NCBI GenBank assembly: GCA_025453605.1
Contig: JALOPZ010000001.1
Location: 276,986 to 340,985 of the forward strand
From: Candidatus Margulisiibacteriota bacterium
GTDB taxonomy: Bacteria; Margulisbacteria; WOR-1; O2-12-FULL-45-9; XYB2-FULL-48-7
Reading direction: 5' to 3'
DNA: 64,000 nt
Shown: in pieces, positions 8,468 to 50,235 of the stretch
Layout: each line of letters starts with the position of its first letter
Numbering within the stretch: position 1 is the stretch's first letter
Translations under genes and position numbers: made by a program
The notes under the pieces: model-generated
Told to the model about the DNA's origin: nothing
The model's input: only the letters and a program-made list of their open reading frames with translations
Databases searched by the model: none

Positions 8468-8476
8468 TATTTTCTT

Positions 8477-15480: not shown

Positions 15481-15494
15481 AACTCTCCGGGTAT

Positions 15495-15521
15495 TTTTCG
15501 TCAAATAATAGGGCGGATTTC
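15495..15521 (-). promoter_or_regulatory. weak sigma-28-like motif GAAA-N15-GACGAAAA
   Basis: Minus-strand read: GAAAtccgccctattatttGACGAAAA. Closely resembles the copy at 44176 (GAAA-N15-GACGATAT). Confidence 0.25.
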
Positions 15522-15557: not shown

Positions 15558-16544
15558 TTATTTGACCGATAATTTAACGATCCGGTGGTTGCCGGTATCG
15601 GCGATGTACAGGTTGCCGCGGCCGTCCAGATCGATCCCGCCCGGATTGTTGAATTCCCCCTGGCCGGCCCCTGCCCGACCGAACGCCAGGATATATTGGC
15701 CCGACCGGGAAAAGAGGACGATCCGATCGTTGTCGCTGTCAGCCACATAAATGAACCGGTCGTCAAGGGCGATCCCCTTCGGTTCGTTCAGCTGGCCGGC
15801 CCCTTTCCCCCGCTCGCCAAAGCCGAAAAGCGGCCGACCATCAAGGTCGAACTTCTGGACCCGGTGATTGCCGGTGTCGACGACGTAAAACGACTGGTCG
15901 CGGTCAACGGCCACGTCCAGCGGGCGGTTGAGGAAGCCGGCGCCAATGCCAAAGCCTCCCGCCGCCGCCACAAAGTTACCGCTCTGATCGAACTTCAGGA
16001 CCCGGTCATTGCCGGAGTCGGCCAGATAGAAGTTGCCCAGCACGTCCACCGCCATCCCGGCCGGGTCCTGGATGGTCCGGCCGCTGTATTCGCCGGTCGC
16101 GGTCCAGTTAAGGAAATTACCGCGAATGTCGAGCAGCTGGACCCGATCATTGTCCCGCTCGGAAACGTATAAACGGAAATTAAAGTCGACCGCCAGGCTG
16201 ACCGGTGTGTTGAACTGTCCAGGCGCGCCGCCAAAACCGCCAAATTGGTAAATGTAGCTGCCGTCCTGGTCAAAACGCTGGATCCGGTTGTTGCCGGAAT
16301 CAGCGACAAAAATGTCGCCCAGACCGGTCGAAAGATCTCCGGTCCGGCCGACTTTGACGTCCTGAGGGTGATAGAATTGCCGGTCGCCGGAGCCGGGCAA
16401 GCCGAATTCGCCGGCGTACGCTAAAGTCGGCCGCACGACCTCGGTCGTGGTCGGAATGCTCCCCATGGCCAGACAGACCGAAGCCAGGCAAACCGCGCTG
16501 ATCAGGGTCAGCATTATTTTGGTCATTTGCCTGCATTTTATCAT
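15558..16544 (-). CDS. NHL-repeat six-bladed beta-propeller protein, secreted
   Basis: Six repeats of the type ADSGNNRIQRFDQDG / ADTGNHRVQKFDLDG. Signal peptide MTKIMLTLISAVCLASVCLA. ATGA overlap with the upstream gene. Confidence 0.8.
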   Translation of the reverse strand: MIKCRQMTKIMLTLISAVCLASVCLAMGSIPTTTEVVRPTLAYAGEFGLPGSGDRQFYHPQDVKVGRTGDLSTGLGDIFVADSGNNRIQRFDQDGSYIYQFGGFGGAPGQFNTPVSLAVDFNFRLYVSERDNDRVQLLDIRGNFLNWTATGEYSGRTIQDPAGMAVDVLGNFYLADSGNDRVLKFDQSGNFVAAAGGFGIGAGFLNRPLDVAVDRDQSFYVVDTGNHRVQKFDLDGRPLFGFGERGKGAGQLNEPKGIALDDRFIYVADSDNDRIVLFSRSGQYILAFGRAGAGQGEFNNPGGIDLDGRGNLYIADTGNHRIVKLSVK

Positions 16545-19531
16545 AAATTAATCTCCAGGTTGCCGCTGATGTCGGTCAACCTGTAATCAGGGGCGAAACT
16601 GACCTGTCGCTCCGCCCGGATGGTAAAGTTCACAAATTCGCTGAGCGAGTATTTTCCTTTGAGCGCCAGGTCGAACAGCTCGGTCGCCGCTCCCTGGAAC
16701 GACTTTGAGTAGCTAAGATCACCATCGACCCGGACGCGGTCGCCCGCCCGGAAGATAAAACCGGCGGCCGGAGCAACCGCATACGAGAGTGGCACGACCG
16801 CCAGGTTGTCAGTTGTCTGGCTCAGGGCTGTCGACAGGCTGAAGCTCCAGGCGTCATTAACGTTCCAGGTCCCTTTCAAACTGGCAGTGTGGCTGACGCT
16901 GTCAGCCAGGTTATCAGCCGCCTCGCCCGTCCCCTGGGTGCCGTACAGGAAAGTGTAGCGGGCGTCAAAGGCGAACCGCTCGGAAAGCGAGGTTCGGGCA
17001 ACCGTGTCAAATCTTGTCGCGCCGGTCCGACCGGGGAGATAAGTGACCGGCTCGGCGCTGGTCAACTGGGTCGTCCGGCCGTTGTCGAGCTGGTAGTTAA
17101 GTTCGACCGACAAAAAGCGGAGCGGCGCCAGTTTGACCGTGTAGAGGACCGAATCAGTGTCGGCGGTGTTCGCCTTCAGGTCGTAACGAAAATTATCGAT
17201 GTTAAACAGGCGGCCGCTCTTTAACAAGCACCCCAGCGCCAGATCGTTGGTCGGCAGGAGATTGATCTCACCCTGCTGCTGCTCATTGCTCCGGCTCAGT
17301 GTCCCGGTGCGGGGGATGACCGTGAAGTCAGGCTTGAACAGATAGCGCAAGCGGAGCGGCCGGACCGGCCGCAGGTCCAGGGAAAAAGAGCCGGTCTGTT
17401 TGGAAACGACCTCGGTCGTGGCGTAGTTCTCGTTGACCGTCGTGATCGTGTATTTGCCGTCGGTCCGGACGGCCGCGCTCGGCTCCGCCCGGTAAGACAT
17501 GTCGGTAACGTTCTTGAGCCCGTCCAGCGTATCGTCCAGGTGTTCGACCGACGCCGCCAGGAAATATTGGCGGGCCGGCGACCAGGCAAGGTTCAGGTTA
17601 TAGGTTCGCCGCTGCGGCGCGGTCCCGTCAGGCAACGTCCGGTCTTCCAGCTCGACATTGGAGGTCAGGGTCAGTTTTTCCAGGCCGACGGTCGCCAGGC
17701 CGAAGTTCGCCCGCCGGTAATCGGTCGCTTCCGCCGAGGGCGACCGCACCAGCCATTCTTCCTTGGTCCCCTTTAGGCTGATCGCCAGCACTCCCGGCCG
17801 GTAGACGGTCTCGACCGAATCCCGGCTGATCCGCCGCGCGATCGTCGCTCCGGAGACGGGGTCATTGCTCTGCTCATCCTGTGAATAGTTGTACTCTAAT
17901 GAGGGGAGCCGCTCCGGCGTCAGGCTTGCCTTGGCTGCCCGGTAGGTGTTGTCATAAACAATACCGCTCTGGGTATACTTATCCTGACTGTAACTCCCCT
18001 GAGCCCCGAACAGGGAGCCGGGGCGAAAACTCAGGGTCCCGCCTCCCGCCGTAACATCCTGTTTCGGCTCGGGATCGCCGATCGGCGCGAAACGGGCCCC
18101 GACCCTTTTGGCCGCCGCGGTCAGGCCGAACGGGCCAAGCTGCGTACTGATCTCCAGCTTGGCGGCTTTTCCCGCTTCCTCGCTCCCCGGTCCGAACAGA
18201 TTTAGGTTTTGCCGCGAATAAGCGATCTCGCCGTTGGCGGTCAGCTGTTCGCTGACCAGCGCGCCGTCGACACCGACCACATAGTGGCCGGCAGGGTTAA
18301 CGGCTTCCTGGCTCATCGTGGCGCGGATATCCGCCGCGCCGCTCAGGCTGTCCGAATCGTCGAGATAGGTCAGGCCAAGTTTGAGGTCGGGCCGCGGCCT
18401 GTCCGTCAGCCGCACGCCGTAAGTCGCGTGCTGGTAAACGTTCTGGCGGTTGTCATAATAGGCCTCGACGATCGACCGCGGATCGATCGTCTTTTTGATA
18501 AATGTGACCGTCCCGGCGTTGTAGTCGATATTGTAGTCATTGCCCCGCTTCTGGAGTTGGCCGTCGACGATCACCCGTTCGCTGTCGATCGCCACCGGCG
18601 CGCTCCCCAGCTGAAATGGCCCCTGGGTCCCGTCGCCGTAAACCCGGAAATATTTAGCCGTCCCTTTGGGGGACGAGTAAAACGCCTGAATACCGTAGTT
18701 ACCGTATTCGCCCTTAAAACGAGCCCCGGACATCACTCTATCCAGCCGGGAGAACTCGGTCTCGGTCAGGTCGGCGGTGTAATCGCCCAGGTAGACTTCG
18801 GTGCTCCCTTGCTGAACAAGTAAGGAGACTTTGTCCTCCTGCTGAGCGACCGTCGGCAATCCCGCCGTGCTGGTGCTGATCAGGTTGGCGTCAACCTTCA
18901 GGTCGTCATTCTGGCCGGCAATATTGAGACGCAGGCCCTCCTCCCGCGTCAGGCCGGGGACAAAGCCTTCCTTGCTCCCCTCTATGCTGCGCGAGGTGAA
19001 CGCCAGGGTCTTGGCCCCTTTGATGATGAACGGCAGCGCTTCGGTCGACGGCGTCAGCACCGTGACCGGTTCGCCGCTGACGGTCAGCAGCGGCTCTTCC
19101 CTGGTCACGTCGAACGGCGGGATGAATTCGGCTTCGCCGGTCACGACCGGCGGCTTGACCACGCGGTACCAGACCACCGACTTGGTCCAGTAAGGCTCAA
19201 AACGGCCGTAACTGAAATGGATATAGCGATACCAGACGGTAAAAAAGTGCCAGCCTTCCTGGTAATCGGCCGGGATGGTGAATTCCCCCAGCCAATATCC
19301 ACCCCGGTAACGGAGCGGGATCTCCCTCTCCCGGTCAGTGTAAACGGTCGCTTTCTGGGCCGGGCCATTGATCCTTATTTTCAGCGCGATCTTGTCGCCG
19401 GTCCGCGGCGGATAATCCGGTTGGATGGTCAGCGAATAGCTTGGTCGGTAGAAAGTCTGTTCAGCGCCGGTTGCGGACAGGCTAAGCAAACAGAGACAGC
19501 AGATCACTAAAAGCCAGGTGCAGGTCCTCAT
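16541..19531 (-). CDS. large secreted protein (996 aa), probable outer-membrane beta-barrel
   Basis: Signal peptide MRTCTWLLVICCLCLLSLSATGA. About 800 aa of alternating-polarity strand-like segments with Y/F/W/G/N/D turns. No named domain recognised. Confidence 0.55.
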   Translation of the reverse strand: MRTCTWLLVICCLCLLSLSATGAEQTFYRPSYSLTIQPDYPPRTGDKIALKIRINGPAQKATVYTDREREIPLRYRGGYWLGEFTIPADYQEGWHFFTVWYRYIHFSYGRFEPYWTKSVVWYRVVKPPVVTGEAEFIPPFDVTREEPLLTVSGEPVTVLTPSTEALPFIIKGAKTLAFTSRSIEGSKEGFVPGLTREEGLRLNIAGQNDDLKVDANLISTSTAGLPTVAQQEDKVSLLVQQGSTEVYLGDYTADLTETEFSRLDRVMSGARFKGEYGNYGIQAFYSSPKGTAKYFRVYGDGTQGPFQLGSAPVAIDSERVIVDGQLQKRGNDYNIDYNAGTVTFIKKTIDPRSIVEAYYDNRQNVYQHATYGVRLTDRPRPDLKLGLTYLDDSDSLSGAADIRATMSQEAVNPAGHYVVGVDGALVSEQLTANGEIAYSRQNLNLFGPGSEEAGKAAKLEISTQLGPFGLTAAAKRVGARFAPIGDPEPKQDVTAGGGTLSFRPGSLFGAQGSYSQDKYTQSGIVYDNTYRAAKASLTPERLPSLEYNYSQDEQSNDPVSGATIARRISRDSVETVYRPGVLAISLKGTKEEWLVRSPSAEATDYRRANFGLATVGLEKLTLTSNVELEDRTLPDGTAPQRRTYNLNLAWSPARQYFLAASVEHLDDTLDGLKNVTDMSYRAEPSAAVRTDGKYTITTVNENYATTEVVSKQTGSFSLDLRPVRPLRLRYLFKPDFTVIPRTGTLSRSNEQQQGEINLLPTNDLALGCLLKSGRLFNIDNFRYDLKANTADTDSVLYTVKLAPLRFLSVELNYQLDNGRTTQLTSAEPVTYLPGRTGATRFDTVARTSLSERFAFDARYTFLYGTQGTGEAADNLADSVSHTASLKGTWNVNDAWSFSLSTALSQTTDNLAVVPLSYAVAPAAGFIFRAGDRVRVDGDLSYSKSFQGAATELFDLALKGKYSLSEFVNFTIRAERQVSFAPDYRLTDISGNLEINL

Positions 19532-19537
19532 TGCCGC

Positions 19538-20458
19538 TCACCAGACGCCCGAGAGCGAGATCCGGTGAACATTGGCGCGCGAGAGCGCCTGTTGATTTAC
19601 ATAGGCATAATCAACCAGCGCGTGCTGGAAAGCAAAACCGGCCCCGGCCGTGAAACCACCGCTTGAGTAACCGGTCCGGAACGCGATCCCCCGGTAGATC
19701 GCCTGCTCGAACCCGAGACTGATCTCCGGCGAATAGCCCGAGCGGGCAACTTGACTGACGTCAACCGCCAGCAGCGCGTCCGCCGGCTTATAAGCCAGAC
19801 CGATCCTTATCTTCGGCGGGACCCGCTCCACCGTCCCGGTCCCCCACTGCTGTTCATTAACGAGGTCGTCAACCTTAAGCCCCAGCGTCAACGGCGACGG
19901 GAAACGGACCAATAACCCCGGCGTAACCGAATATCCGGACGCCTGCCCTCCGGCGATCTGGTCCAGCGAGGAATTGAGGTACTTGGCCGTCAGGCCGATC
20001 GAGACGCGGTCGCTGAGCTCCCGGCCGTAGGCGATCAGATAGGCATTGCTGAAGTAGCTGAACTGGCCGAGCTGTTCAACTTCGTTATGCTGATCGACCT
20101 CGCTCGAGGTCTGGGCAATATTACCGAGCGCCACCTGGACCCAGGAGATGCCCAGGGTGCCGCCGAGCGCTTTCTGCACATAGCTGATGTAGAAATGATC
20201 GGCGTCGGTGGAGAGTTTGGTCTGCATCGTGGTGATCTCGCTGCTGGAAACCGTCCCTAAGCCGGCCGGGTTCCAGTACGGCGCGTCGGCGTTATCGGCG
20301 ATCGCAGTAAATGCACCACCCATCCCGAGCGCCCGGGCGCCGACGCCGGATTCGAGCACCGCCAGGTCGGTCCCGCCCTGCCCTTGCGCCAGCACCGGCA
20401 AGGCCAGCAACAATGTCAGATGACCAATGACCAATGTCAAATGAATGTATTTTCTCAT
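19538..20458 (-). CDS. PorV/PorQ-like (FadL-fold) outer-membrane beta-barrel protein
   Basis: Signature GARALGMGGAFTAIADNADAPYWNPAGLG after the signal peptide. C-terminal aromatic (…SLSGVW) beta-signal. ATGA overlap with the giant gene's stop. Confidence 0.6.
   Translation of the reverse strand: MRKYIHLTLVIGHLTLLLALPVLAQGQGGTDLAVLESGVGARALGMGGAFTAIADNADAPYWNPAGLGTVSSSEITTMQTKLSTDADHFYISYVQKALGGTLGISWVQVALGNIAQTSSEVDQHNEVEQLGQFSYFSNAYLIAYGRELSDRVSIGLTAKYLNSSLDQIAGGQASGYSVTPGLLVRFPSPLTLGLKVDDLVNEQQWGTGTVERVPPKIRIGLAYKPADALLAVDVSQVARSGYSPEISLGFEQAIYRGIAFRTGYSSGGFTAGAGFAFQHALVDYAYVNQQALSRANVHRISLSGVW
20412..20446. repeat. heptamer array AATGTCA GATGACC AATGACC AATGTCA AATGAAT (reverse complement unit TTGGTCA)
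   Basis: Read directly. Lies in the signal-peptide coding part (HLTLVIGHLTLL) of the PorV-like gene. Confidence 0.8.
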
Positions 20459-23400: not shown

Positions 23401-26400
23401 GACCTCGACCAGGAAAGCGTACTTGCCCGGCGCGGCGTAATTCCCGGCGCCGACCGAGCCGTTCCAGATCACGTAACCGGCGCCCGGTTCCTTGAAAATG
23501 TTATTTTCCAGAGTGGTGATCAGATTGGCGGCCGTAAAATCGGACCGGGTATAATCGACGGCCGCCCGGGTGTTGTCCATTTTGTAAACCCTGGTGGTGA
23601 CGTAGCCTGGTTCGCTCAGGTTATACTGTAAAGTAGTCTGCAGGGCCGTTTCGGCAGCGGAAGCGTTGGTCGCAAAATGGCCGGGATTGGCGATCATCCC
23701 CGGTTCGGTCGAAATGCCGACGGTCGGCTCGACCAGGTCGATCACCAAGCTCTCCGGCGAGGAGGACAGCCTGAGCCCTTCGTTGCCGGCAAAGTCGCGG
23801 CCGGCAACCCGCACTTCCGCCGTCCCACTCCAATCGCTGCTGCTGACCGGGTAATTGTAGGAATACTCGCCCGCGGTCAGGCTGTCGTAAATTGCCGGAT
23901 TACCGTTGACCGAGACGTCGGGATTGACTTTGAGCGGCTCCGAACTCTGGAAGCGAATATTGGCTACCGCCCCTGCCTTGACAAATTTGGGCAGGCATTC
24001 AAGGCGGCTGAAGAGCGGAGCGACGGTATCGATCGTCAGCAGCTCGCCGGCCCGATAGGTCGCCGGATTATTGGCCAGATCGCTAACTTCGATGGTGATG
24101 TTCGCCAGACCGTCATTCCCGGCAAAAGCTTTGTACTGCGCGGTGCAAAGTCCGTCGGCAACCGTCCACTGGCCGGTGACCGGGATCAGTTGCGGCGCGG
24201 CGCCACTCTGCGCCACCCAAAGCCTGGGGGCCGATCGGAGCGGTTCGGAGATCTTGAATTGGATCGCGGCGGGACCGCTCACCTCGGGAGTGCTGGCCGG
24301 GTTCGGCACAACGGTCAGCTCGCTGATCGCCGGTTCGGTCTGGTCGATCGTCAGCGTTTTGGTCTTGTTGATCGGATTGAAAGCCAGATCGCGCGCCACT
24401 ACCTCAATGGTCGTTATTCCTTCGCTGTCTGCGCCGACAACCAGATATTGATAAGTGTAGTTGTCGGCTTCTTTGCTGACCAGGCTGGCCGGTCTGATAA
24501 TGCCGTTGCTCAGCAGAAAAGTGACGGACGGATCTTCCGCCACCGGCTCGGGGAAGCTCAGGTTGACAGTGACCGTGTCGCCTAATTTAGCGTAAGCGTG
24601 ACTGAGCGAGAAGTCGGTCGGTTCGGGATTGGTGTAGTCAACGTTGAAGGGGACGGCCTGCGGCACAGCCGTCGTCCCCAGCGCGTCCTGGCCGGTGATT
24701 CGGGCAAAGTAATTGCCGGCCGGGAGCGGTGTCCCGGCGTCCGTCAGTCCGTCGTAGGTGTAAACGTATGAGCCGGCCGTCTTGTTCAAGGTTTTGCTCC
24801 AGAACGCCTCGCCGGAAGCGTTCAGCACTTCCAGCTTGACCAGCCCTTCACTGGAGATGTAAAGCGTCGCGTAATTAAGTCCATAATTGAAGTCGATCGT
24901 ATCCTTGGCCCCGTCGCCGTTCGGGGAAAAGATCACCGGACCGACCGCCAGGTTAACCGCCGGTTTCGTCGAAACCAGCAGCAGTGTCCCCCGCCCCTCG
25001 CTCCCAACCCCTAATTTATCCTCCACACTGACCAAGTAGCGGTAATGACCGTCGGGCACGGCCTGCCCGCTGTCATTCTTTCCGTCCCAGTAGAACGAGT
25101 AGTTGCCCTCCCCCTGCGGGTCATTGGTCAGCAGGTGGCGAACGGTCGAGCCGGTCTCGTTCTGGATATCGAGTGACACCCGGTAATCAGGGGCGCCGCC
25201 GGACAACTGGTAAGTTATCCTGGTCAGGTCCATTAAGCCGTCGCTGTTCGGGGTAAAGGGATCCGGGCTGGCGAGCGCGGCAGTTATCTGCAGGTTTTCC
25301 AGCGGCACAACGGAAAAGCGGTCGGTGATCTGTTCTGCGCTGTTCTGCGCCCGGTCGATCGCCGAAACCTTGATGTATGTTGGCCGCTGGTACTCGGGGT
25401 TAGGCTGGCGGAAAATGGCCCAATGCTCTCCCGCTCCCTGTTCTTCGTTGTTGACCAGGACCTGGACCGGCAGGCCGTCAAGATCGTAAGCCACGGCCTC
25501 AACCGAAGCAGTTTCGGGCAGGACATATTTCAGCGCCGCCCGCCGCTCCTCATAATTGATATTGACCAGATAGGTCAGGATATTGGGCTCGACACTGTCG
25601 ACCACCACCGTATTGGTGATGTCGGCCGGTTCGCCGCCGTCCAGGTCGGTCGCGGTAATCCGAAACTCGTAAGTCCCGTCGCTGATCTTGCTCCCGTTCC
25701 GGCTGCTCTTTGGCCCGGCATAATCGGGGTCGTAACTCCCGTCCCAGGCGACCTGATGCCCCCCTTTGGTCTGGATCTCCCCTTTGATCAACCGTTTGAG
25801 CACCGCCCCGTCCTGGCCGATCACGGTGAGATCGACGCGGACATTGTCCCGGGCCAGCGCGTAACTAAGACGGGTCTGGCCGTTGCGCGGATTGGGCGGC
25901 GAAAAGGGATCGGGCTCGGCAAAAAGATACGGGACCAGCGACGGCTGGCAATCGACCAGAATAGCGGAGGTCTCAGAAGTGGCAATATTACCAGCCTGGT
26001 CTTCCGCCAGCAAATAATAATTTAAGTTCCCACCCAGCAGCTCGTAGCGGCTCCCCCGTCCATCCCACTCCCAGCTGCCGGTCACGGTGGTCTTGCCGGT
26101 CGGGTTAAGGTCCTGCAGATATTTACGGAAGCGTGTTCCGTCTCCCTGTTCGATCACGGTCGTAGCCGCTGCCGGTTCGGACAGCCGATACGAGAAGAGC
26201 GTGCGGTCTTTGGTCCCGTCATTGTTCGGCGTGAACGGATTAGGCGCGGCGGCAAAGCTTTCGATCGTCGGAGGGACGGTGTCGATGGCGACCGCCTGAG
26301 GTTCGCACGTCCCCAGGTTGCCGGCGTCATCTTCCGCGTAAACGCGCAGCTTATATTCCCCATCGGAAAGTGCCGACCCTTCCCAGGTAAAACAGCAATA

Positions 26401-29400
26401 GCCGGGTTCAAGCAACTGCCGCTTGATGATCGTCGCCGCTTCCTTGCCCTCCTTATCCTCGACCAGGATGGTGACCGGGATTTTGGCCGCGTAGTTGTCT
26501 GCCAGGTAAAAGCTGATCTCGGTATTGTCTTTCCGGCTGTCGCCGTTCGGCGAGAAGAAATTATTGGACAACTTGACGTTCTCCAGTCGCGGCGGCTGGA
26601 CGTCGACCAGCACTTCCTGGGTGGCGACCGCGGTATTGCCAGCTAGGTCGGCCGCTTTCAGTTCCAGCACATAGTGCCCCTCGATCACGTAGCTGCCGAT
26701 CTGGCCGTTCCAGTTATCCGTAAAAGCGGTCGGGGTAGTTTTGATCGGCCGATCAGTGGCCATAATAACATTGATCGGCCGGTTGTTCTTGTAGAGGGTG
26801 AGAGTCGCTTCGGCGGTCGGAGCCAGGTTGTCGGCGATCGTGTAATCGATGGTCAGGGCGTTATCAGGGCCCGAGCGGAGCGGCGAAAATGCCGGCGGCG
26901 CGCGGTCCAGATTGACCACCGGCGGGGTGCTGTCGAGCGTCAGGTCAAGGGACTGGCTTTTGACATAATCACCAAAGCTGGCAATGACCTTGAGCGTGTA
27001 CTGGCCGTCGGGCAGCGCGGCCTCGCCGCTGCCATCCCAGACTTCCTCGATCGCGCCGATGCTGCGCGTCACTTTATTGAGCAGCGTGACGGGCGTTCCG
27101 GTCCCGCTTTTCGGGAGCAATTGGATCGTCACGTCAGCCGGCTGACTTAAGTAATAATTGATCTCGAGCGGATCGGTTTTGCCCTTGACCGGCGAGAACC
27201 AGGCGCTTGAGACCCTGACGTTGGCCAGCGCCCCGCCGACATTCCAGACCAGCGGCTGGTCATGTTTGGCGTCGGCGATATACAACCGGCCTTCCCTGAG
27301 CTTGATCTTTTGCGGTTCGATCGCGTATTCTTCGGACTTGTACTCATTGATCATGTTGCCGGCGCTATCGAGCTGGACGATCCGTTGGTTGCCCGCATCC
27401 GCCACCCAGATGTTGCCAAAGGAATCGACATCGACCCCTTTGGGGGATTTAAGGACGCCTTCGCCGAATTTGGAAACAAATGAGCCATCGGAAATGAACT
27501 TTTGGATGCGATTGTTGCCGGTATCGGCAAGATATATGTCCCCGGACTTGTCGATTGCAGCCGCCGGAGAGTCGAACTGCCCATTCGCACTCCCTGGAGG
27601 ATTGGAGTGCCAAAACATCTCCTTCAGCCAGCTCCTTTCCCATGAAGCCTGCCACATATTGGGCCCGCAAGAGCCCCTATCAAATACGATCTGGTCGTTA
27701 AGCGCGTTTGAATAGAACAACGCCCGGTCAACAGTCTGTCCGTTGATCGTAAAATTCTGATTGAACGCGGCCCTTGCCTCATCCTTCAGATCGGCTTTCA
27801 AGACCGAAAATATCTCCGGGGTTCCTGCAACCGTATATTTCAACAAGCGATGCTTCTGACGATCCACCACATATAGCTTATCGCCGCTTGTTGCCACCCC
27901 CCCAGGCAAAGAGTATCCTTCCCCAAAAACCGTCTTCAGGCCGCCGCCGGCTGCACCAGAATAATCCATGTTCCTTAAACCAAGGATCCATGAATAGCTG
28001 TCAACATCCCCATAAACGATATAAGCCTCTTTCCCTTTTATCTGCCTAATAAACCTTAAGTCCCCGTCATAAATCAACACCCGGTTCGCGTAGGTGTCGG
28101 CAATATAGATCCGGTCGCCGGCAGGGGAAACTGCCAGGCCAAGGGGATACCATAAAGTTTCAACCGAGCCCGAACTGGTAGTAAATCCTTCTATCTTCCC
28201 TGTCGCCTTGCCCGCGCTGTCATATCGGACCATCTTCATTTTGTTGGTATACAAAACATACTTGTTGCCGGCATTGTCAAAAGCGATATCACCCACAACC
28301 AGGGCTTTCACTTCTTCGGGGGGAACCAGGCGGACAACGGTTGGATCGGGCGCGCTGTCAGGCGGGGCTGGTTGGCCGGGCAGATTGACTTGGACAGGAA
28401 CATTTCTGACCGTTTGATTGCCCGCCCGATCGATCGCCGTAATCTTGAAAAAGTACCAGCCGTTGGGCATAAATCCTGGTGCGCCCCAAGTAACGCTCAT
28501 TACTTCGTCTTTTTTAAGCTCTGGGTTTGTGGCTAAGTTTTCAATCTCGGCGCTACCCGTCACATCGATGATACTAACAATCGCCGAATACAAGTCTTCA
28601 TTGCTAGAAAACGACAGCAAAGCATCTGCTTCGGAAGTGACGATATATACCGTTGGATCGCTTTTAACGCTCAAATACGGCGGCGTATTGTCGATTTGAA
28701 TTGAGGTAATGCCGTCTCGGTAGGCCGTTAAACCAGTAGTGGGCTCTTTGGCTTCTACCTGATAATAATAAACGCCTTCCCCGCCGCCTCGCCATTCTCC
28801 TTCATACGTAGCACCCGTAGCAGTAAGGGTTCCCGCCGGGTTATTGTGTTCATCAAACATCTTGATCTGCCAATTCACACTTTTGTCTGCACGGGCAGAA
28901 ATCCAAGTACTATTTGTAAAACCAGGGTTATTGGGATGAACGGAGAAATAGGTATTACTTACATCTGTATAGTAAATATTTGGGACCCTAGAAGCAGACA
29001 CCGCCGCGCTTCGCACTCCACCTCCCGCCGCAGCAACGGATATATTGGAGGTGTTCGGATCAAAAAGATTTGCATAGGCCCCGTCGCTGGGAAAGTCTAC
29101 TCCGACCATGCCGACCGTAACAATTCTTTCTCTAGTATCGGGCGGATTCTGAAGATGGAAACCGGCCGCGTCGCGGTAACACGAATACACCTTTACCGTG
29201 ATACGGTAAAGCCCCTGGGAAGGGGTCCAATCCATATAATAATAATCCTTAGCGCTGAACGGCATGCTCATATAATTTGGCTGAAATGCATATACATCTT
29301 CTACTCTGGTCTGAGCAGATTGTTCCTTCCAGATATGGTTCAGGTCATCAAATTGGATGGTCTTTATTGTTTTATTTCTTGTCCCAATCAAGCCCTCTAT

Positions 29401-30081
29401 CTCAAAAACCACCTTGTAAGGGGTCGATGAATAAGAAACACCCGAGGAAGACTTAGCATCAAGGGCTTGATAGGCTTCGATCAAGACCTGCACTGGATGA
29501 TTCGGCTTCGGATAATTGGTCGGCTTGCCCCTGTCCAATATTTTGATGCATTCCGCTTGGGAGAAAGGCGCGAGATCATCAACCGCTATTGTTGCGTCGC
29601 CGTATTTTGGTTGTTCCATGCCGGCAACGACAGGGTTGACCGCTTGATTGCCGTAGATCGACGGCCCCAGACTTAAATGGAGGTGAGGCCTGGTCCCACC
29701 CGTATTGCCTGATAGTGCAACGACTTGCCCCTTACTGACCCGGCCGCTCGTTACTATGATTTGCGACAAGTGCGCATAACGATATTGAAGGGAGCGATCA
29801 TTACTTTCGACCACCAGATATTTTCCCCAACCCGGAGTATTAACATCGTGCGCTTCGGTGATCGTTCCGTCGAACAACGAGCGGATCGGGGTTCCGACCG
29901 GAACCAAGAAGTCCATTCCATCATGCCACTTATAAAAAACTGTTCGGCTTCGGTACTGGCCAAAGTTTGCGGTTATCCCTTTGTATTTATCTGTGAATGG
30001 CTTTGATACTACTTCGGCTTTCACTGCCAAGGTCAGCGCAGCAACAACCAATAGGATAAAAGTAGTCCGCCTTAATGACAT
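20455..30081 (-). CDS. giant secreted surface protein (3208 aa): M23 peptidase, NHL propeller, FlgD-Ig-like and Ig-like modules, FN3-like region, T9SS-type C-terminal domain
   Basis: Signal peptide MSLRRTTFILLVVAALTLAVKA. M23 motifs HDGMD and HLHLS. NHL repeats (ADTGNNRIQKF, ADAGNQRIVQL). Repeated F(S/T)PN(G/N)DGxKD modules. C-terminus FPNPFNPNREKTKIRYRL...IYSITGALVAEL... Confidence 0.85.
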   Translation of the reverse strand: MSLRRTTFILLVVAALTLAVKAEVVSKPFTDKYKGITANFGQYRSRTVFYKWHDGMDFLVPVGTPIRSLFDGTITEAHDVNTPGWGKYLVVESNDRSLQYRYAHLSQIIVTSGRVSKGQVVALSGNTGGTRPHLHLSLGPSIYGNQAVNPVVAGMEQPKYGDATIAVDDLAPFSQAECIKILDRGKPTNYPKPNHPVQVLIEAYQALDAKSSSGVSYSSTPYKVVFEIEGLIGTRNKTIKTIQFDDLNHIWKEQSAQTRVEDVYAFQPNYMSMPFSAKDYYYMDWTPSQGLYRITVKVYSCYRDAAGFHLQNPPDTRERIVTVGMVGVDFPSDGAYANLFDPNTSNISVAAAGGGVRSAAVSASRVPNIYYTDVSNTYFSVHPNNPGFTNSTWISARADKSVNWQIKMFDEHNNPAGTLTATGATYEGEWRGGGEGVYYYQVEAKEPTTGLTAYRDGITSIQIDNTPPYLSVKSDPTVYIVTSEADALLSFSSNEDLYSAIVSIIDVTGSAEIENLATNPELKKDEVMSVTWGAPGFMPNGWYFFKITAIDRAGNQTVRNVPVQVNLPGQPAPPDSAPDPTVVRLVPPEEVKALVVGDIAFDNAGNKYVLYTNKMKMVRYDSAGKATGKIEGFTTSSGSVETLWYPLGLAVSPAGDRIYIADTYANRVLIYDGDLRFIRQIKGKEAYIVYGDVDSYSWILGLRNMDYSGAAGGGLKTVFGEGYSLPGGVATSGDKLYVVDRQKHRLLKYTVAGTPEIFSVLKADLKDEARAAFNQNFTINGQTVDRALFYSNALNDQIVFDRGSCGPNMWQASWERSWLKEMFWHSNPPGSANGQFDSPAAAIDKSGDIYLADTGNNRIQKFISDGSFVSKFGEGVLKSPKGVDVDSFGNIWVADAGNQRIVQLDSAGNMINEYKSEEYAIEPQKIKLREGRLYIADAKHDQPLVWNVGGALANVRVSSAWFSPVKGKTDPLEINYYLSQPADVTIQLLPKSGTGTPVTLLNKVTRSIGAIEEVWDGSGEAALPDGQYTLKVIASFGDYVKSQSLDLTLDSTPPVVNLDRAPPAFSPLRSGPDNALTIDYTIADNLAPTAEATLTLYKNNRPINVIMATDRPIKTTPTAFTDNWNGQIGSYVIEGHYVLELKAADLAGNTAVATQEVLVDVQPPRLENVKLSNNFFSPNGDSRKDNTEISFYLADNYAAKIPVTILVEDKEGKEAATIIKRQLLEPGYCCFTWEGSALSDGEYKLRVYAEDDAGNLGTCEPQAVAIDTVPPTIESFAAAPNPFTPNNDGTKDRTLFSYRLSEPAAATTVIEQGDGTRFRKYLQDLNPTGKTTVTGSWEWDGRGSRYELLGGNLNYYLLAEDQAGNIATSETSAILVDCQPSLVPYLFAEPDPFSPPNPRNGQTRLSYALARDNVRVDLTVIGQDGAVLKRLIKGEIQTKGGHQVAWDGSYDPDYAGPKSSRNGSKISDGTYEFRITATDLDGGEPADITNTVVVDSVEPNILTYLVNINYEERRAALKYVLPETASVEAVAYDLDGLPVQVLVNNEEQGAGEHWAIFRQPNPEYQRPTYIKVSAIDRAQNSAEQITDRFSVVPLENLQITAALASPDPFTPNSDGLMDLTRITYQLSGGAPDYRVSLDIQNETGSTVRHLLTNDPQGEGNYSFYWDGKNDSGQAVPDGHYRYLVSVEDKLGVGSEGRGTLLLVSTKPAVNLAVGPVIFSPNGDGAKDTIDFNYGLNYATLYISSEGLVKLEVLNASGEAFWSKTLNKTAGSYVYTYDGLTDAGTPLPAGNYFARITGQDALGTTAVPQAVPFNVDYTNPEPTDFSLSHAYAKLGDTVTVNLSFPEPVAEDPSVTFLLSNGIIRPASLVSKEADNYTYQYLVVGADSEGITTIEVVARDLAFNPINKTKTLTIDQTEPAISELTVVPNPASTPEVSGPAAIQFKISEPLRSAPRLWVAQSGAAPQLIPVTGQWTVADGLCTAQYKAFAGNDGLANITIEVSDLANNPATYRAGELLTIDTVAPLFSRLECLPKFVKAGAVANIRFQSSEPLKVNPDVSVNGNPAIYDSLTAGEYSYNYPVSSSDWSGTAEVRVAGRDFAGNEGLRLSSSPESLVIDLVEPTVGISTEPGMIANPGHFATNASAAETALQTTLQYNLSEPGYVTTRVYKMDNTRAAVDYTRSDFTAANLITTLENNIFKEPGAGYVIWNGSVGAGNYAAPGKYAFLVEVRDRAGNLTQRLWGGTVWIQNNALKVQEPDQTVRGGTNPNPHYFSPKNNPGDPAFGAAKYWFKVLLGVTPKSYEEPERIEVMGLDDDIAWLDGVGKKGGYYTVTVHDQAGQLVRTVESGEFVTSANYYAAWNGKDDAGQYVPDGKYYFRVDVRDYLGRRALDNLMTREVVVDNTAPVVVDNQTGDEAWRNAGGTTYNVGFRDDGADASRLALAQYRVRKADGTGSGWSGIPIVTGEAQFTAPWAIDFANQCTDGTNQVYVKVQDIAGNLTETADPVFYIKKDVTKPTNCILEINNEAGQTNTIAIDLTKLQADDPVSGVAAVIVRNDSDGWSGELSPGPRPWILKNNEGGQTVSAQFRDNAGNWSDPVSKTIIFRTMPTIGNLSVSNGSFNPYLAANTTSISFNAADAPAGLQSVTARLKRGATVIREWPLGTGGSYAFSWDGTNSYGDYVNEGDYTLEIEASDNAGNRSVDSSRTIAIWDDINISNNSADSFSPAVLADGDYLNIRWTEGAPDDGYVRTADASASCGWSVDQTVRGASSPFYIDHDQTVTVRCRADGENAEGHAIYTSNGMSISGGTQIWSKAGGTGDGETVDTVNLSVGWYYADVTVKFVFGQGSGYTKVDYIDRKYNQYQRISQDGGKNWNNAGKWPDKVDGPPGQTTMTQGKTFTHSVDIRAGEVWYRRLQGDSAWEVKLTRSGVAAKPSLTINGNQEDCLVVWEDNRSGNKDIYFQKIPHNFAPVSGNPTSRLQTAAVRMDKVISQAASLESPALITPADNSQNVTSLRPTFEWRHHQGETTAYRLDVAKNDTFTVAAQTFTKAPSAGTADKADLALFNYTYAIHEFDPGLDRDTYYWKVTALTTNEAATSEVWSFTITPELTLTGVTNFPNPFNPNREKTKIRYRLGADADSVKIRIYSITGALVAELDGSTNGESANIWDKYNDIEWDGRNGRGELVMNGIYPFEISARLGDKSLTGRGKIAVLK

Positions 30082-30105
30082 CCTTACTCCAGTTGCCCGG
30101 CCACA

Positions 30106-30816
30106 TCAAAATATTGCTTTAACCAGAGCATCCATTTCCCGGATCGCCTTCTGCCTCTCTTTCTTGAAGCCCATGACCAAGGCGATGTTCCCCCCCACTC
30201 CCGTTACGGGCCTGATCATATCGTCCTGCACATAAAAAATGATCTCCTTGACCAGTTCATTTTGGAATGTCGTATAGCTGATTTCGTACGTCCCTCCGGA
30301 AGGGTTAAAACAGTAAATTACCAGACATTTCTGTTGGCCGATAGTTCGCACTGAATAAGGATAATACTGGTATCCTTCATTTGGCACGTAAATATCCCCC
30401 CGATGCTCCCCTTTCTTCACCCTCAAGTGCAGCTGTCTTTCTTTTTTAAGGTCTCTCACTGCCTCCCCATCGCCAGAAGGCTCTTTGATCAAGTAATTTG
30501 TTTTGTCGTATTTAATAACAACAATATTGATGCCGTAGTAAGGATCGTCTGACAGCTGATATTCCTTGCTAAACACCTTGCCCGAACGCGGAATGTTCTG
30601 ATCTATTTCTTTTTTGATCGTTGGCACTATCTTCCATGATTCGGATATCAACCGATCGGCATTATTCCCCGCTTTGACGGCACCCTCAATATTGTTCGTT
30701 CTCTGATTTGTTGTTCTAACATCCCGTAATAATTCGCTAAAGGCGCCACTAACAGACATGCAGCCCAACAAAATTAAAAATACCAATATTATCTTAATGA
30801 TCCTTGTTTTCTTCAT
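30106..30816 (-). CDS. hypothetical lipoprotein (236 aa)
   Basis: ATG 30816 is preceded by GGAG. Lipobox in MKKTRIIKIILVFLILLGC. SD-linked to the giant gene 24 nt downstream. Confidence 0.6.
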   Translation of the reverse strand: MKKTRIIKIILVFLILLGCMSVSGAFSELLRDVRTTNQRTNNIEGAVKAGNNADRLISESWKIVPTIKKEIDQNIPRSGKVFSKEYQLSDDPYYGINIVVIKYDKTNYLIKEPSGDGEAVRDLKKERQLHLRVKKGEHRGDIYVPNEGYQYYPYSVRTIGQQKCLVIYCFNPSGGTYEISYTTFQNELVKEIIFYVQDDMIRPVTGVGGNIALVMGFKKERQKAIREMDALVKAIF

Positions 30817-30856
30817 CTCTCCATCCCCTTTAATTTTTCCCCGCCCCACGTTTGGT

Positions 30857-30883
30857 TTATCGGCCCGGCCGGGCGGTTATTTC
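30857..30883 (-). promoter_or_regulatory. sigma-28 (FliA/SigD)-type promoter GAAA-N15-GCCGATAA upstream of the lipoprotein/giant-protein operon
   Basis: Minus-strand read: GAAAtaaccgcccggccggGCCGATAA. The -10 octamer equals the E. coli sigma-28 consensus GCCGATAA. About 40 nt upstream of ATG 30816. Confidence 0.45.
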
Positions 30884-36284: not shown

Positions 36285-37208
36285 ATGAAGCCAAAAGTGA
36301 CGGTGGTCGGGGCCGGTAATGTCGGGGCGCAGTGCGCCTACCGGCTGGCCCAGCGCGGGGCCGCCGACGTCACGCTGATCGACGTGGTCGAAGGGCTGCC
36401 GCAGGGGAAAGCGCTCGACATGTCTCAGGCCGGCGCGGTCGACGGCTTTGACGCGCTGATCACCGGGACCAATAACTACGCCGACACCAAAGAGTCGGCC
36501 GTCGTCGTCATCACCGCCGGTTTGGCCCGCAAACCAGGGATGTCCCGCGACGACCTGATCGGCAAGAACGCGGCGATCATGAAGAGCGTGGTCGAGAACA
36601 GCGTCAAACATTCTCCGCACGCCGTCCTCCTGATCGTCACCAACCCGCTCGACGTAATGACCCACTATGCCCGCAGGATATCAGGATATCCGGCTAATAG
36701 GGTATTAGGCATGGCCCCGCTTCTTGACGCCGCCCGAATGCAGTATTTCATCGCCGACACCTGCAAGTGCTCGATCAAGGACGTTTACGCCGAAGTGCTG
36801 GGGAGCCACGGCGACCTGATGGTCCCGGTCCCCCGCCTCTCGACGGTTAAGGGGAAGCCGATCACCGAACTGCTGACCGCCGAACAGATCAAAGCGATCG
36901 TCGATAAAACGACGAACGGCGGCGCGGAGATCGTCGCCCTGCTCAAGAGCGGCTCCGCCTACTACGCCCCCGGTTCGGCTGCCGCCGCCATGGCCGAAGC
37001 GATCGTCACCGACAGCAAAAAGGTGATCAGCAGCTGCGTCCAGCTGAGCGGCCAGTACGGGATCAAGAACGTTTATCTCGGCGCCCCGGCTAAACTGGGT
37101 AAAGCCGGCGTGGAGGAGGTCCTGGAGATCGAGCTGACCGCCGCGGAAAAAGGCGCCCTGCAAAACGCCGCCCAAGCGGTACAGGCGCTCTACCCGGTCC
37201 TCCCTTAG
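36285..37208 (+). CDS. mdh: malate dehydrogenase (LDH-like family)
   Basis: VVGAGNVG Rossmann motif, ITAGLARKPGMSRDDL, and LGSHGD active-site region. Confidence 0.9.
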   Translation: MKPKVTVVGAGNVGAQCAYRLAQRGAADVTLIDVVEGLPQGKALDMSQAGAVDGFDALITGTNNYADTKESAVVVITAGLARKPGMSRDDLIGKNAAIMKSVVENSVKHSPHAVLLIVTNPLDVMTHYARRISGYPANRVLGMAPLLDAARMQYFIADTCKCSIKDVYAEVLGSHGDLMVPVPRLSTVKGKPITELLTAEQIKAIVDKTTNGGAEIVALLKSGSAYYAPGSAAAAMAEAIVTDSKKVISSCVQLSGQYGIKNVYLGAPAKLGKAGVEEVLEIELTAAEKGALQNAAQAVQALYPVLP

Positions 37209-37212
37209 TTCT

Positions 37213-41066: not shown

Positions 41067-41073
41067 TGGGGTC

Positions 41074-41079
41074 ATTATA
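41074..41079 (-). promoter_or_regulatory. extended -10 TGcTATAAT placed 7 nt from the ruvC ATG (leaderless)
   Basis: Minus-strand read: gTGcTATAATgaccccaATG. Confidence 0.45.
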
Positions 41080-41115
41080 GCACATTTCGGCCGAACCGGC
41101 ACCCTCTAACTATGA

Positions 41116-41121: not shown

Positions 41122-41128
41122 TGGTCAT

Positions 41129-50221: not shown

Positions 50222-50235
50222 GTTTAAGGAACAAA

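Follow-up and report, generated by a model that had tools for sequence, protein, structure and literature searches.

A Margulisiibacteriota operon that looks like a stripped-down relative of type 9 secretion

The closest described counterpart of the locus reported here is the SprA-PorV-CTD mechanism of type 9 secretion systems (T9SS), in which cargo bearing a C-terminal domain (CTD) is handled by SprA and PorV (PMC10994853). SprA/Sov (PDB 6H3I, 8GL6, 8GL8; TIGR04189) is a single-chain giant outer membrane barrel of about 2300–2400 aa with 36 strands, and PorV serves all type A substrates. In type B CTD systems of Bacteroidota (SprB-SprF, PG1035-PorP), a large surface adhesin is followed by the gene for its own outer membrane barrel, a cognate PorP/SprF shuttle (PMC9143113, PMC12618676). 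T9SS has been described as confined to the Bacteroidota/FCB group (PMC10994853, PMC11205867, PMC7906972). Another set of very large single-chain barrels, SlpA of Deinococcus radiodurans and the OmpM-type connectors, links the outer membrane to the cell wall (PMC9388160, PMC10628300). We analyzed a 64 kb stretch of DNA (the window) from a member of Margulisiibacteriota, which is placed in the Cyanobacteriota/Melainabacteria group and is a phylum without a known T9SS. No paper linking the phylum to T9SS was found in the literature searched.

Five ORFs on the minus strand, spanning 15558–30816, were confirmed as a coupled operon, as a preliminary description had claimed, and the peptide strings quoted there were found in the translations. 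The first encodes a lipoprotein-like protein (30106..30816, 236 aa) and is followed by a giant cargo (20455..30081, 3208 aa), a PorV/PorQ-family protein (19538..20458, 306 aa), a giant barrel (16541..19531, 996 aa), and an NHL propeller (15558..16544, 328 aa). Two junctions are ATGA overlaps, in which the PorV-family gene starts on the cargo stop codon (20455–20458) and the propeller gene starts on the barrel stop codon (16541–16544). The others are gaps of 6 nt between the PorV-family and barrel genes (19532–19537) and 24 nt between the lipoprotein and cargo genes (30082–30105). Homologues are numerous for four of the five, so these are real genes rather than chance ORFs. None of the related loci examined contains a homologue of the lipoprotein-like ORF; the conserved unit is therefore four genes, and the earlier view of the lipoprotein as part of the module was not upheld. 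All four conserved proteins carry signal peptides, and the C-terminal residue of both barrels is hydrophobic or aromatic. The next downstream ORF (13507–15504, 665 aa, TTG start) lies beyond a 53-nt gap, lacks a signal peptide, and is not conserved beside the module in relatives, so the operon most likely terminates at 15558.

The 996-aa protein, previously an unassigned barrel candidate of about 1000 aa, proved to be a giant barrel with SprA as its best structural match. It comprises a signal peptide, an Ig-like domain (aa 26–125), a disordered linker (aa 130–161), and a barrel of about 40 membrane-length strands, counted from the DSSP string of an AF2 model (pLDDT 85). The top three PDB matches found by Foldseek were all SprA (6h3i_A, 8gl6_A, 8gl8_A; E 5e-10 to 1e-8, TMq 0.42–0.43), a TM-score that may largely reflect barrel circumference. 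SlpA structures gave the second-best fold (8agd, 8ae1, 7zgx; E about 5e-8, TMq 0.19–0.25), and FimD (TMq about 0.20) and LptD (0.14–0.19) ranked lower. Sequence similarity to SprA is limited to about 95 residues, formed by a small beta domain inserted in the barrel and the next two strands (aa 300–395; 18347..18634, minus strand). Residues 302–395 align to positions 593–689 of TIGR04189 (E 3e-6), and 26 of 46 barrel-family members match the SprA HMM at this inserted domain (best E 4.7e-12). The domain is also similar to TIGR02217/DUF2460, a family of phage distal tail proteins. Over its whole length, the protein scores 24.6 bits against the SprA HMM, far under the cut-off of 200, and sequence profiles of the barrel family did not retrieve the SprA chain in the PDB. 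A remote, bridging relative (P0202) reaches 80 bits (E 5e-23).

The barrel shares with SprA a single-chain architecture of comparable circumference, an inserted beta domain detectable by the SprA HMM, and genetic ties both to a PorV-family protein and to one whose tail is CTD-like. It differs in having more strands and only 996 aa, so that most extra-barrel mass, including the SprA cap, must be missing. Its N-terminal module is Ig-like, where other family members have LysM or NHL; LysM is found in the FCPU426-like relatives, from which we take this module to be periplasmic. The constant partner is an NHL propeller rather than PPI, Plug, SprE, or SkpA, and the barrel is encoded with its own cargo in a phylum outside the FCB group. 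At E ≤ 1e-3 the barrel matched 2795 representatives, and nearly all of the 107 clusters of barrel homologues bear the label Margulisiibacteriota, Saganbacteria, or WOR-1. The longest of the best 150 relatives has 1784 aa, i.e., none of these is SprA-sized. We regard the 996-aa protein as a putative compact SprA-like translocon.

The preliminary identification of the 306-aa protein as a PorV-like barrel was borne out by NF033709, the PorV/PorQ family model, which it matches over its full length with 113.8 bits (cut-off 90). This cut-off is also exceeded by the PorV-family proteins of two other loci (L008 and L021). The protein, which ends in W, falls below the equivalog cut-offs of PorV, PorQ, and PorV2, scoring 37 bits for PorV (NF033710, cut-off 250) and 58 bits for PorQ (NF033711, cut-off 220), and it is shorter than both models (367 and 335 positions, respectively). 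Its sole Pfam match is UPF0164, a family of Treponema proteins, and neither Pfam nor NCBIfam gave a match to FadL/TodX (Toluene_X). It is the putative cognate carrier and anchor of the cargo tail and, in contrast to PorV, appears dedicated to a single cargo.

The giant cargo has an N-terminal signal peptide, an M23 peptidase domain, NHL repeats, numerous Ig-like repeats of the Big_13/FlgD_ig kind, a domain of the OmpL47 type, and, at the C-terminus, a sorting-type domain (Pfam/NCBIfam). Matches to CHU_C and TIGR04131 fall on internal repeats. The M23 peptidoglycan endopeptidase domain (aa 53–150; 29632..29925, minus strand; PF01551, 63 bits vs a cut-off of 28.7) has ShyA/MepM-type matches in NCBIfam. 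Its HxxxD (HDGMD) and HxH (HLH) motifs are intact, suggesting catalytic competence, and its N-terminal position in the cargo would make it cell-distal. Orthologues of the cargo with the same tail occur in six loci (L017, L020, L021, L022, L035, and L044).

The C-terminal domain of the cargo (aa 3104–3208; 20458..20772, minus strand) is a 7-strand beta-sandwich with PNPFNP, GIYPFE, and KIAVLK motifs and an AF2 model of pLDDT 86. It scores above the cut-off for FlgD_ig (33.3 bits vs 27) but below those for Por_Secre_tail (PF18962, 18.6 vs 27) and TIGR04183 (16.6 vs 23). End-to-end alignment matched it to the extreme C-termini (last ~100 residues) of PorU (5e-9), a T9SS-dependent M6-like protease (1e-8), and PorZ (5e-5). 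In Foldseek, PorU ranked 7 and PorZ ranked 20 amid generic Ig folds. The proposed T9SS-CTD-like C-terminus therefore stands as an FlgD_ig-type beta-sandwich that aligns to PorU and PorZ, but not as a type A tail by model cut-off. A divergent tail in another locus (L008) does exceed the TIGR04183 cut-off (25.0 vs 23). A homologous fragment carries the NCBI name "T9SS type A sorting domain-containing protein." Tail identity is 62%–78% in loci where barrel identity is 37%–60%. We consider the domain a putative sorting and anchoring signal.

The 328-aa protein is a secreted six-bladed NHL beta-propeller (NHL, 129 bits; DUF5128 six-bladed propeller in Pfam). Of 33 Margulisiibacteriota loci that could be assessed, 20 have its gene next to the barrel, as do three FCPU426-like loci, and in one protein (P0182) the propeller is fused N-terminally to the barrel. 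Its earlier designation as a module partner fits these data, and it is a putative periplasmic partner of the barrel, acting as a gate, plug, or receptor.

A synteny survey revealed that cargo, PorV-family, NHL, and barrel genes recur together across Margulisiibacteriota and in FCPU426-like genomes, i.e., in two candidate phyla. Gene order is cargo-PorV-NHL-barrel in four Margulisiibacteriota loci (L020, L021, L022, L035) and three FCPU426-like loci (L039, L042, L047), and in the closest relative (L044, barrel 71% identical) the genes run giant-PorV-barrel-NHL, and the 4-nt overlaps are the same. A PorV-family gene directly follows all nine CTD ORFs found among the Margulisiibacteriota loci and those of L039, L044, and L047; in L042, the CTD and PorV-family genes are separated by a DUF559 gene. 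Two modules coexist on one complete chromosome, with barrels 84%, PorV-family proteins 86%, and NHL proteins 91% identical. Their cargo bodies are 35% identical, and the tails differ at few of 105 positions. In every comparison, the conservation ranking was tail > PorV > NHL > barrel.

The description of the module as cargo-dedicated and hard-wired holds for the lineage of the window but not more widely. The barrel gene stands directly upstream of ruvC-ruvA in 27 of 37 Margulisiibacteriota loci, often with the NHL gene only or without any partner, and four loci (L004, L010, L011, L030) have no PorV, NHL, or CTD gene within 7–10 kb of the barrel. L008, L023, and L033 carry, close to this barrel, divergent CTD-PorV pairs of a second class. 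Whether or not the NHL gene accompanies it, the barrel gene belongs to the core genes of the phylum, has its usual place beside ruvCA, and probably serves several CTD-PorV pairs; the single coupled four-gene operon is a feature of the window's lineage. A more remote barrel relative lies within a BamA/Skp/TamB/LptD-type envelope-biogenesis cluster.

We favor, at somewhat better than even probability, a compact T9SS-like translocon with cognate carrier-anchors acting on a giant surface fibril. In this model, Sec would export the 3208-aa cargo into the periplasm, where the cognate PorV-family barrel, docked on the ~40-strand SprA-like barrel, would recognize the C-terminal beta-sandwich. The cargo would then exit tail first through the very wide pore of the giant barrel and be kept on the cell surface non-covalently by its own PorV-family protein, much as type B CTD adhesins are held by adjacent PorP/SprF shuttles. 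Paralogous pairs within a genome or phylum are a further likeness to those systems, whereas the partner here is PorV/PorQ-family without a PorP_SprF match and the tail is type-A-like (FlgD_ig, Por_Secre_tail-like) rather than a type B CTD. The M23 endopeptidase would sit at the far tip of a long stalk of Ig-like domains. The propeller would be a periplasmic barrel subunit that gates or plugs a pore lacking the large SprA cap, or that receives cargo. The analysis shows domain identities, the folds of the barrel and the tail, gene coupling, synteny in two phyla, and the propeller-barrel fusion, whereas transport and its direction, anchoring, what the propeller does, and the source of energy are inferred; no motor or energy-coupling component was identified.

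A rather unlikely alternative is that the barrel is an SlpA/OmpM-like structural outer membrane protein (an abundant envelope scaffold, cell-wall tether, or general pore) and not a translocon, with the CTD protein and its PorV-family partner using it as a docking platform or co-located with it as envelope components. A wider class of giant scaffold barrels could include this one, because one member of the family (P0094) exceeds the cut-off of Pfam SlpA_C (38.5 bits vs 35, over seven barrel strands) and SlpA is the next-best fold; another member (P0283) scores 25.7. Both groups have Bacillati (Terrabacteria)-side hosts, and the peptidoglycan-binding LysM of the FCPU426-like relatives parallels the SLH domain of SlpA in its logic (PMC9388160). 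The fixed housekeeping site by ruvCA, sometimes without a partner gene, and the remoter relative in the envelope-biogenesis cluster also fit a structural protein. However, the window protein has no SLH domain, coiled-coil stalk, or SlpA_C match, none of the 46 aligned members matches SlpA_C at E < 0.01 (vs 26 for SprA), TMq is well below that for SprA, SlpA/OmpM barrels have 28–30 strands, and the window protein is linked to PorV-family, CTD, and NHL genes. A structural role leaves unexplained why, in two phyla, PorV-family and CTD genes are repeatedly found tightly linked to the barrel, translationally coupled, and duplicated together with it.

That the giant protein is instead ordinary cargo of a full canonical T9SS that is dispersed and encoded elsewhere is improbable. 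The PorV-family protein would then be one of several shuttles, and the barrel and NHL protein would be accessory, e.g., for attachment or in a PorQ/PorZ-like complex. Both the CTD-like tail and the PorV-family protein count among the classical components of T9SS, the phylum's CTD-PorV pairs outnumber barrels near them, and the view of this genome is confined to the 64 kb of the window. Against this, no close SprA-sized barrel relative appears among the best 150, and GldK/L/M/N, PorU, PorZ, SprE, and PorP were found neither in the window ORFs scanned (most of the total) nor in Pfam annotation of about ten related loci. The host also belongs with Cyanobacteriota/Melainabacteria, outside the group to which T9SS is described as confined. 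Uptake rather than export, with the PorV/FadL-like protein and giant barrel importing hydrophobic or large substrates freed by the M23-bearing surface protein, is very improbable. PorV falls within the FadL-like fold class, and the sole Pfam match of the 306-aa protein is UPF0164. Giant proteins of Omnitrophota have been linked to cell-wall degradation beside import systems (10.1101/2023.11.21.568195). However, Toluene_X and a TonB-dependent plug domain are both unmatched, and import leaves unexplained both the tail's standing as the best-conserved part of the module and the PorV-family gene of its own that comes after it every time.

The lipoprotein-like ORF lies in a stretch of low GC, has no Pfam or NCBIfam match, and is lineage-specific and outside the conserved module. 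Its product starts MKKTRIIKIILVFLILLGC from an ATG at 30816, and the ORF list also offers a GTG start at 30849. The outer limit given in the preliminary description, position 30883, is non-coding and upstream of the operon. The NCBI gene call for this ORF (assembly GCA_025490975.1) is likewise 236 aa.

Five consecutive minus-strand genes in the window form a translationally coupled series, and the ORFs and ATGA overlaps given in the preliminary description were confirmed base by base. The genes encode a lipoprotein-like protein (236 aa, 30106–30816, with its ATG at 30816 and the same NCBI gene call), a giant cargo protein (3208 aa, 20455–30081), a PorV-family carrier (306 aa, 19538–20458), a giant barrel (996 aa, 16541–19531), and an NHL propeller (328 aa, 15558–16544). 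Stop/start overlaps occur at 20455–20458 and 16541–16544, the other gaps are 6 and 24 nt, and no convincing terminator was found between genes of the series. The closest relative found (locus L044, barrel 71% identical) keeps the giant-PorV-barrel-NHL order and the same 4-nt overlaps, and the genes that follow differ from those in the window, so the transcription unit most likely ends at 15558. A downstream 665-aa ORF was rejected as an operon member, being cytoplasmic-looking, without a signal peptide, and not conserved beside the module (the cargo, carrier, barrel, and propeller genes). A methyltransferase and a histidine kinase were also rejected; neither has a signal peptide or is conserved beside the module, and other genes follow it in L044. 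The 236-aa lipoprotein has no family match in Pfam or NCBIfam. It had been counted as part of the unit, but a homologue is absent from every related locus and the conserved unit does without it, ruling it out as a conserved component.

GC content is 0.44–0.52 between 27500 and 31000, compared with 0.56–0.62 elsewhere. This dip takes in the lipoprotein gene together with ~850 codons at the start of the giant gene (the M23 domain and beyond), which suggests that acquisition or exchange of the lipoprotein gene and of the cargo's distal end may have been separate from that of the other module parts. The remaining window is ordinary chromosome, with genes for SmpB and tmRNA, DapB, dUTPase, Ldh, fumarase, RuvAB-type proteins, an aminoacyl-tRNA synthetase, and Lnt. 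The smpB gene (6955–7440) is followed by a tmRNA gene (8058–8470, Rfam 154 bits) with an unusually long predicted tag peptide, ADVKEALAGVQWAWTNTSVFAGAAVAA.

The cargo starts with a signal peptide, followed by an M23 peptidoglycan endopeptidase domain (aa 53–150) with HxxxD and HxH motifs. It also has NHL repeats, an extended series of Big_13/FlgD_ig Ig-like domains, an OmpL47-type domain, and a C-terminal domain of ~105 aa (the tail, aa 3104–3208), previously described as being of the FlgD-Ig/Por-secretion-tail type. Scored alone, the tail passes FlgD_ig (33.3 versus a cut-off of 27) and fails both type A models of the T9SS C-terminal sorting domain (CTD), TIGR04183 (16.6 versus 23) and PF18962 Por_Secre_tail (18.6 versus 27). 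A divergent tail in the related locus L008 passes TIGR04183 (25.0 versus 23). Along its entire length, the window's tail aligns with the very C-terminal ends of PorU (E = 5e-9), a T9SS-dependent M6-like protease (1e-8), and PorZ (5e-5). Its AF2 model is a seven-strand beta-sandwich (pLDDT 86) for which Foldseek placed the PorU CTD at rank 7 and the PorZ CTD at rank 20, with streptococcal Fn3 and FlgD domains scoring equally well; the 24% identity to the PorU and PorZ CTDs is the maximum among the top 20 matches, tied with one FlgD entry. Because sub-threshold models and mixed fold matches stand beside the PorU and PorZ alignments, the tail is CTD-like and is not a certified type A CTD. Searches against PDB sequences returned a marginal FlgD match only, and a word-indexed search for homologues of the 110-aa tail yielded 14 short fragments and nothing longer. 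A homologous tail fragment is named as a T9SS type A sorting domain in public annotation. Cargo matches to CHU_C and TIGR04131 (type B CTD) fall on internal Ig-like repeats (aa 1606–1689) and were therefore not accepted as sorting signals. PorU and PorZ genes were not seen among the window ORFs scanned or in the loci examined.

The carrier passes the PorV/PorQ family model NF033709 over its full length (113.8 bits versus 90; aa 30–303 aligned to positions 2–323 of 326), as do an orthologue in L021 (113.5 bits) and a paralogue in L008 (143.4 bits). It is below the equivalog cut-offs for PorV (NF033710, 37.4 versus 250), PorQ (NF033711, 58.0 versus 220), and PorV2 (NF052325, 68.7 versus 325). 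There was no FadL/TodX or Toluene_X match at E ≤ 0.01 in Pfam or NCBIfam, where only PorV-family models and UPF0164 were found, and no match among PDB sequences. The original PorV-like label is upheld, and both the proposed parts list and the idea of a T9SS-like system stand up well to these checks. The carrier is tied to the barrel by gene adjacency and translational coupling, in the window and in related loci.

The barrel has no assigned Pfam family and had been left unassigned. An AF2 model built from a 46-sequence alignment (pLDDT 85) contains an N-terminal Ig-like domain (residues 26–125), a disordered linker, and, after residue 168, approximately 40 membrane-length strands with one small beta domain (~300–361) between them. 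In Foldseek, SprA chains from three structures of the T9SS translocon take the top three places among PDB matches (E = 5e-10 to 1e-8, TMq 0.42–0.43), followed by lower matches to Deinococcus SlpA (0.19–0.25), FimD (~0.20), and LptD (0.14–0.19). The SprA/Sov model TIGR04189 scores 24.6 bits on the whole barrel against a cut-off of 200 (E = 3e-6), and the match is local, from aa 302–395 to model positions 593–689. In 26 of 46 barrel relatives (best E = 4.7e-12), this model picks up the inserted domain plus the two strands that come after it, and it reaches 80 bits in a remote relative, P0202. Phage distal tail proteins (TIGR02217/DUF2460) are also similar to the inserted domain. SprA was not found in the PDB by sequence when the barrel-family profile, the remote-relative profile, or the bridging protein P0202 served as query. 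Since the link consists of a modelled fold and one inserted domain, and the whole-protein score is far under its cut-off, the predicted barrel is SprA-like without belonging to the SprA family.

SprA/Sov proteins have ~2300–2400 residues, large extra-barrel cap regions, and 36 strands, whereas the barrel here has 996 aa and a predicted ~40 strands. Lengths in its family are ~990–1100 aa, and the best 150 relatives are all ≤1784 aa. By general beta-barrel geometry, ~40 strands would give a Cα-to-Cα diameter of ~7 nm, at least the width of SprA. Only ~830 residues are available for the barrel, leaving no room for a SprA-sized cap, so a seal of some other kind would be required. Homologues form 107 clusters at 90% identity, and the named ones are nearly all Candidatus Margulisiibacteriota, Saganbacteria, or WOR-1; two are labelled otherwise (Syntrophales and Sulfotelmatobacter). 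Of the 34 loci recovered from species-representative genomes, those with a named phylum are all Margulisiibacteriota except one labelled Omnitrophota. One UniRef entry is named "SprA N-terminal domain," and apart from this and the tail fragment mentioned above, public annotation of the module proteins is hypothetical.

The last gene of the series (328 aa) encodes a secreted NHL propeller with six blades. In one barrel relative (P0182), an NHL propeller is fused N-terminally to the barrel and replaces the N-terminal module, which is a peptidoglycan-binding LysM domain in other relatives; the propeller is therefore placed, provisionally, in the periplasm. It could serve as a gate, plug, or receptor of the barrel.

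Synteny was surveyed with tblastn and HMMs built from the window proteins in 37 non-redundant Margulisiibacteriota loci, window included. Of the 33 loci that could be assessed, 20 have an NHL gene directly adjoining the barrel; it is upstream in most, and the window and L044 are the only loci with it downstream. A PorV-family gene is directly upstream of the barrel in seven of the 37 loci, and the complete cargo-PorV-NHL-barrel order is found in four (L020, L021, L022, and L035). All ORFs with a C-terminal CTD-like domain (9/9) immediately precede a PorV-family gene. Three of the nine (in L008, L023, and L033) belong to divergent, class 2 CTD-PorV pairs in which the PorV protein is 24%–27% identical to that of the window, and one of the three class 2 tails (L008) passes TIGR04183. 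Identity to the window proteins always follows the same order, from the tail (62%–78%) through PorV (53%–64%) and NHL (45%–49%) to the barrel (37%–60%). One complete chromosome, OY969425.1, has two full modules, between which the barrels are 84%, the PorV proteins 86%, and the propellers 91% identical; their cargo bodies are 35% identical and their tails differ at few of 105 positions.

The genes ruvC-ruvA directly follow the barrel in 27 of 37 loci, whatever the upstream genes, and four loci (L004, L010, L011, and L030) have no PorV, NHL, or CTD gene within 7–10 kb of the barrel. In the window, ruvA-ruvC (39979–41102, with flanks at 36285–44168) lie in a housekeeping neighbourhood of genes for Ldh, fumarase, SBP_bac_5, a HAD phosphatase, ruvA, ruvC, pantothenate kinase, a class II tRNA synthetase, and MTHFR; ruvC and the pantothenate kinase gene are 26 nt apart. 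Because this neighbourhood is retained without the barrel, unlike in those 27 loci, the barrel and NHL genes appear to have moved ~21 kb into the cargo operon in the window lineage. Across the phylum, the barrel, with or without the propeller, is a core gene and probably serves several CTD-PorV pairs. The suggestion that the export machinery is hard-wired to a single cargo thus fits the window lineage and the duplicated modules of one genome but does not extend phylum-wide. At L009, a tandem repeat (373–696) translating as LEFRIY/LEFRIC lies immediately upstream of the PorV-family gene, at the site where other genomes have the cargo tail. Ahead of the repeat is a four-helix protein of the 23S rRNA intervening-sequence type, and the cargo gene was apparently lost from this site or displaced.

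An exhaustive profile search with the barrel yielded 2795 representatives (50% identity) at E ≤ 1e-3 and 152 at E ≤ 1e-30. The relatives listed are 136–1784 aa (full-length ~800–1784 aa), with none of SprA size among them. A subfamily named for candidate division FCPU426 has LysM in place of the Ig-like N-terminal domain. This group surfaced in a search with an alignment of remote barrel relatives (A2), which mainly retrieved relatives of its first sequence. Three FCPU426-like loci (L039, L042, and L047) have the four-gene module, in which a giant FlgD_ig/NHL protein of up to 7663 aa with a CTD-like end is followed by PorV-like, NHL, and LysM-barrel genes. In L042, DUF559/MTES_1575 (Vsr-like endonuclease) genes occupy the gap between the cargo and PorV-like genes (6902–7276) and the gap between the PorV-like and NHL genes (8662–9048), and the cargo ORF appears to stop inside the tail domain; judging from these insertions, the module is probably under disruption by selfish elements. 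Remoter barrel relatives occur in other contexts. In L040 (10001–22850), a 949-aa remote relative (E = 1e-42 to the A2 profile) neighbours a 911-aa unannotated protein, a CarboxypepD_reg protein, an LptC/LptD_N-like protein, Skp (OmpH), BamA, and TamB. This envelope-biogenesis cluster hints that the wider barrel superfamily may have roles beyond CTD cargo.

The best-supported reading, in which we have moderate confidence, is that the module may be a compact relative of the core formed by the T9SS translocon and its carrier. By analogy with structures of SprA with PorV and substrate (PMC10994853), the tail of the Sec-exported cargo would bind loops of the PorV-family partner docked on the giant barrel, and the cargo would exit through the barrel pore together with its carrier. 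The PorV-family protein would then keep the fibril on the cell surface with the M23 peptidase distal. The anchoring role is proposed because the strict pairing of one tail with one PorV protein mirrors type B CTD adhesins, for which adjacent PorP/SprF shuttles also act as surface anchors (PMC9143113, PMC12618676). Transport, topology, anchoring, and gating are thus proposals, while the domain identities, folds, gene coupling, synteny, and propeller-barrel fusion are observed. A tentative further reading makes the module an autonomous, minimal machine for type-9-like secretion and anchoring, which would work without the PorKLMN/GldKLMN motor-ring apparatus. A cap-less ~40-strand "mini-SprA" barrel would be gated from the periplasm by the NHL propeller, and cargo-specific PorV-family carriers would handle both the extraction and the anchoring of giant fibrils that bear a peptidoglycan hydrolase at their tip. 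No PorK/L/M/N (GldK/L/M/N), SprE/PorW, SprT/PorT, or PorU/PorZ was found among the ORFs scanned in the 64-kb window or in the ~10-kb flanks of related loci, and no energy source for export was identified from the module or the examined sequences.

That the cargo is an ordinary substrate of a canonical T9SS encoded elsewhere in the genome seems improbable, given that no canonical component occurs in any sequence examined and that no SprA-sized relative is close. Somewhat easier to entertain, though still unlikely, is a barrel acting as an SlpA/OmpM-like scaffold or tether, to which the second-rank SlpA fold matches, the LysM relatives, and the fixed housekeeping position would be suited. The family member P0094 passes Pfam SlpA_C (38.5 versus 35, over seven barrel strands), and P0283 scores 25.7; SlpA_C (PF21620) has no match in the window barrel or in any of the 46 aligned members at E < 0.01. 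The SLH domain and trimeric coiled-coil stalk of SlpA-type connectors are also absent from the barrel, which has no SLH match and is modelled with an Ig-like domain and a disordered linker in front of its strands. The TM-scores to SlpA are lower, and a scaffold would leave the coupling to PorV and CTD genes unexplained. An uptake system has little support and is very improbable.

The T9SS is described as confined to Bacteroidota or the FCB group (PMC10994853, PMC11205867, PMC7906972) and as a ~20-protein machine driven by a proton-powered motor. The NCBI taxonomy places Margulisiibacteriota in the Cyanobacteriota/Melainabacteria group of Bacillati, far from Fibrobacterota-Chlorobiota-Bacteroidota, and literature searches found no account of a T9SS-like system, a mini-SprA, or a PorV-like module for either Margulisbacteria or FCPU426. 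The results point to a four-gene unit of recognisably T9SS-related parts, including a CTD-like tail, a PorV-family barrel, and a SprA-like barrel, in a phylum across the bacterial tree from FCB and in a second candidate phylum. If the autonomous reading is true, the translocon-carrier-CTD core would be older and wider than Bacteroidota, because it is present in Margulisiibacteriota (the sister group of Cyanobacteria) and FCPU426, and the module would offer a much smaller model for how folded proteins cross the outer membrane. If the unit works as proposed, the ancestral type 9 core would be separable from the motor and attachment layers, structural biology would gain a translocon under half the size of SprA, and there would be an explanation for giant-protein display by these uncultured bacteria, which are known for numerous very large genes (10.1101/2023.11.21.568195). 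An M23 endopeptidase held distally on a stalk of 3200 residues would then suggest that the bacterium attacks other cells on contact or attaches to them, a point of interest for the ecology of a phylum that is known chiefly through metagenomes. Any function assigned to the barrel would propagate widely, since almost all of its 2795 representatives are annotated as hypothetical.

Two adjacent plus-strand ORFs of 912 aa (47324–50062) and 2956 aa (50212–59082) were considered as a second barrel-plus-giant pair and rejected; both look largely helical by eye and lack a signal peptide or family match (no Pfam or NCBIfam match for the 912-aa ORF and no Pfam match for the 2956-aa ORF). The larger ORF has a glycine- and alanine-rich hydrophobic stretch in its C-terminal fifth, and GC content is low (0.51) at 46–48 kb, just upstream of the pair. 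These ORFs seem unrelated to the export module and may be a giant effector or toxin-like pair. The minus-strand genes at 59124–63989 encode Lnt, 215-aa and 756-aa proteins without a Pfam match, and a TPR protein. The presence of Lnt indicates triacylated lipoproteins, consistent with a diderm envelope.
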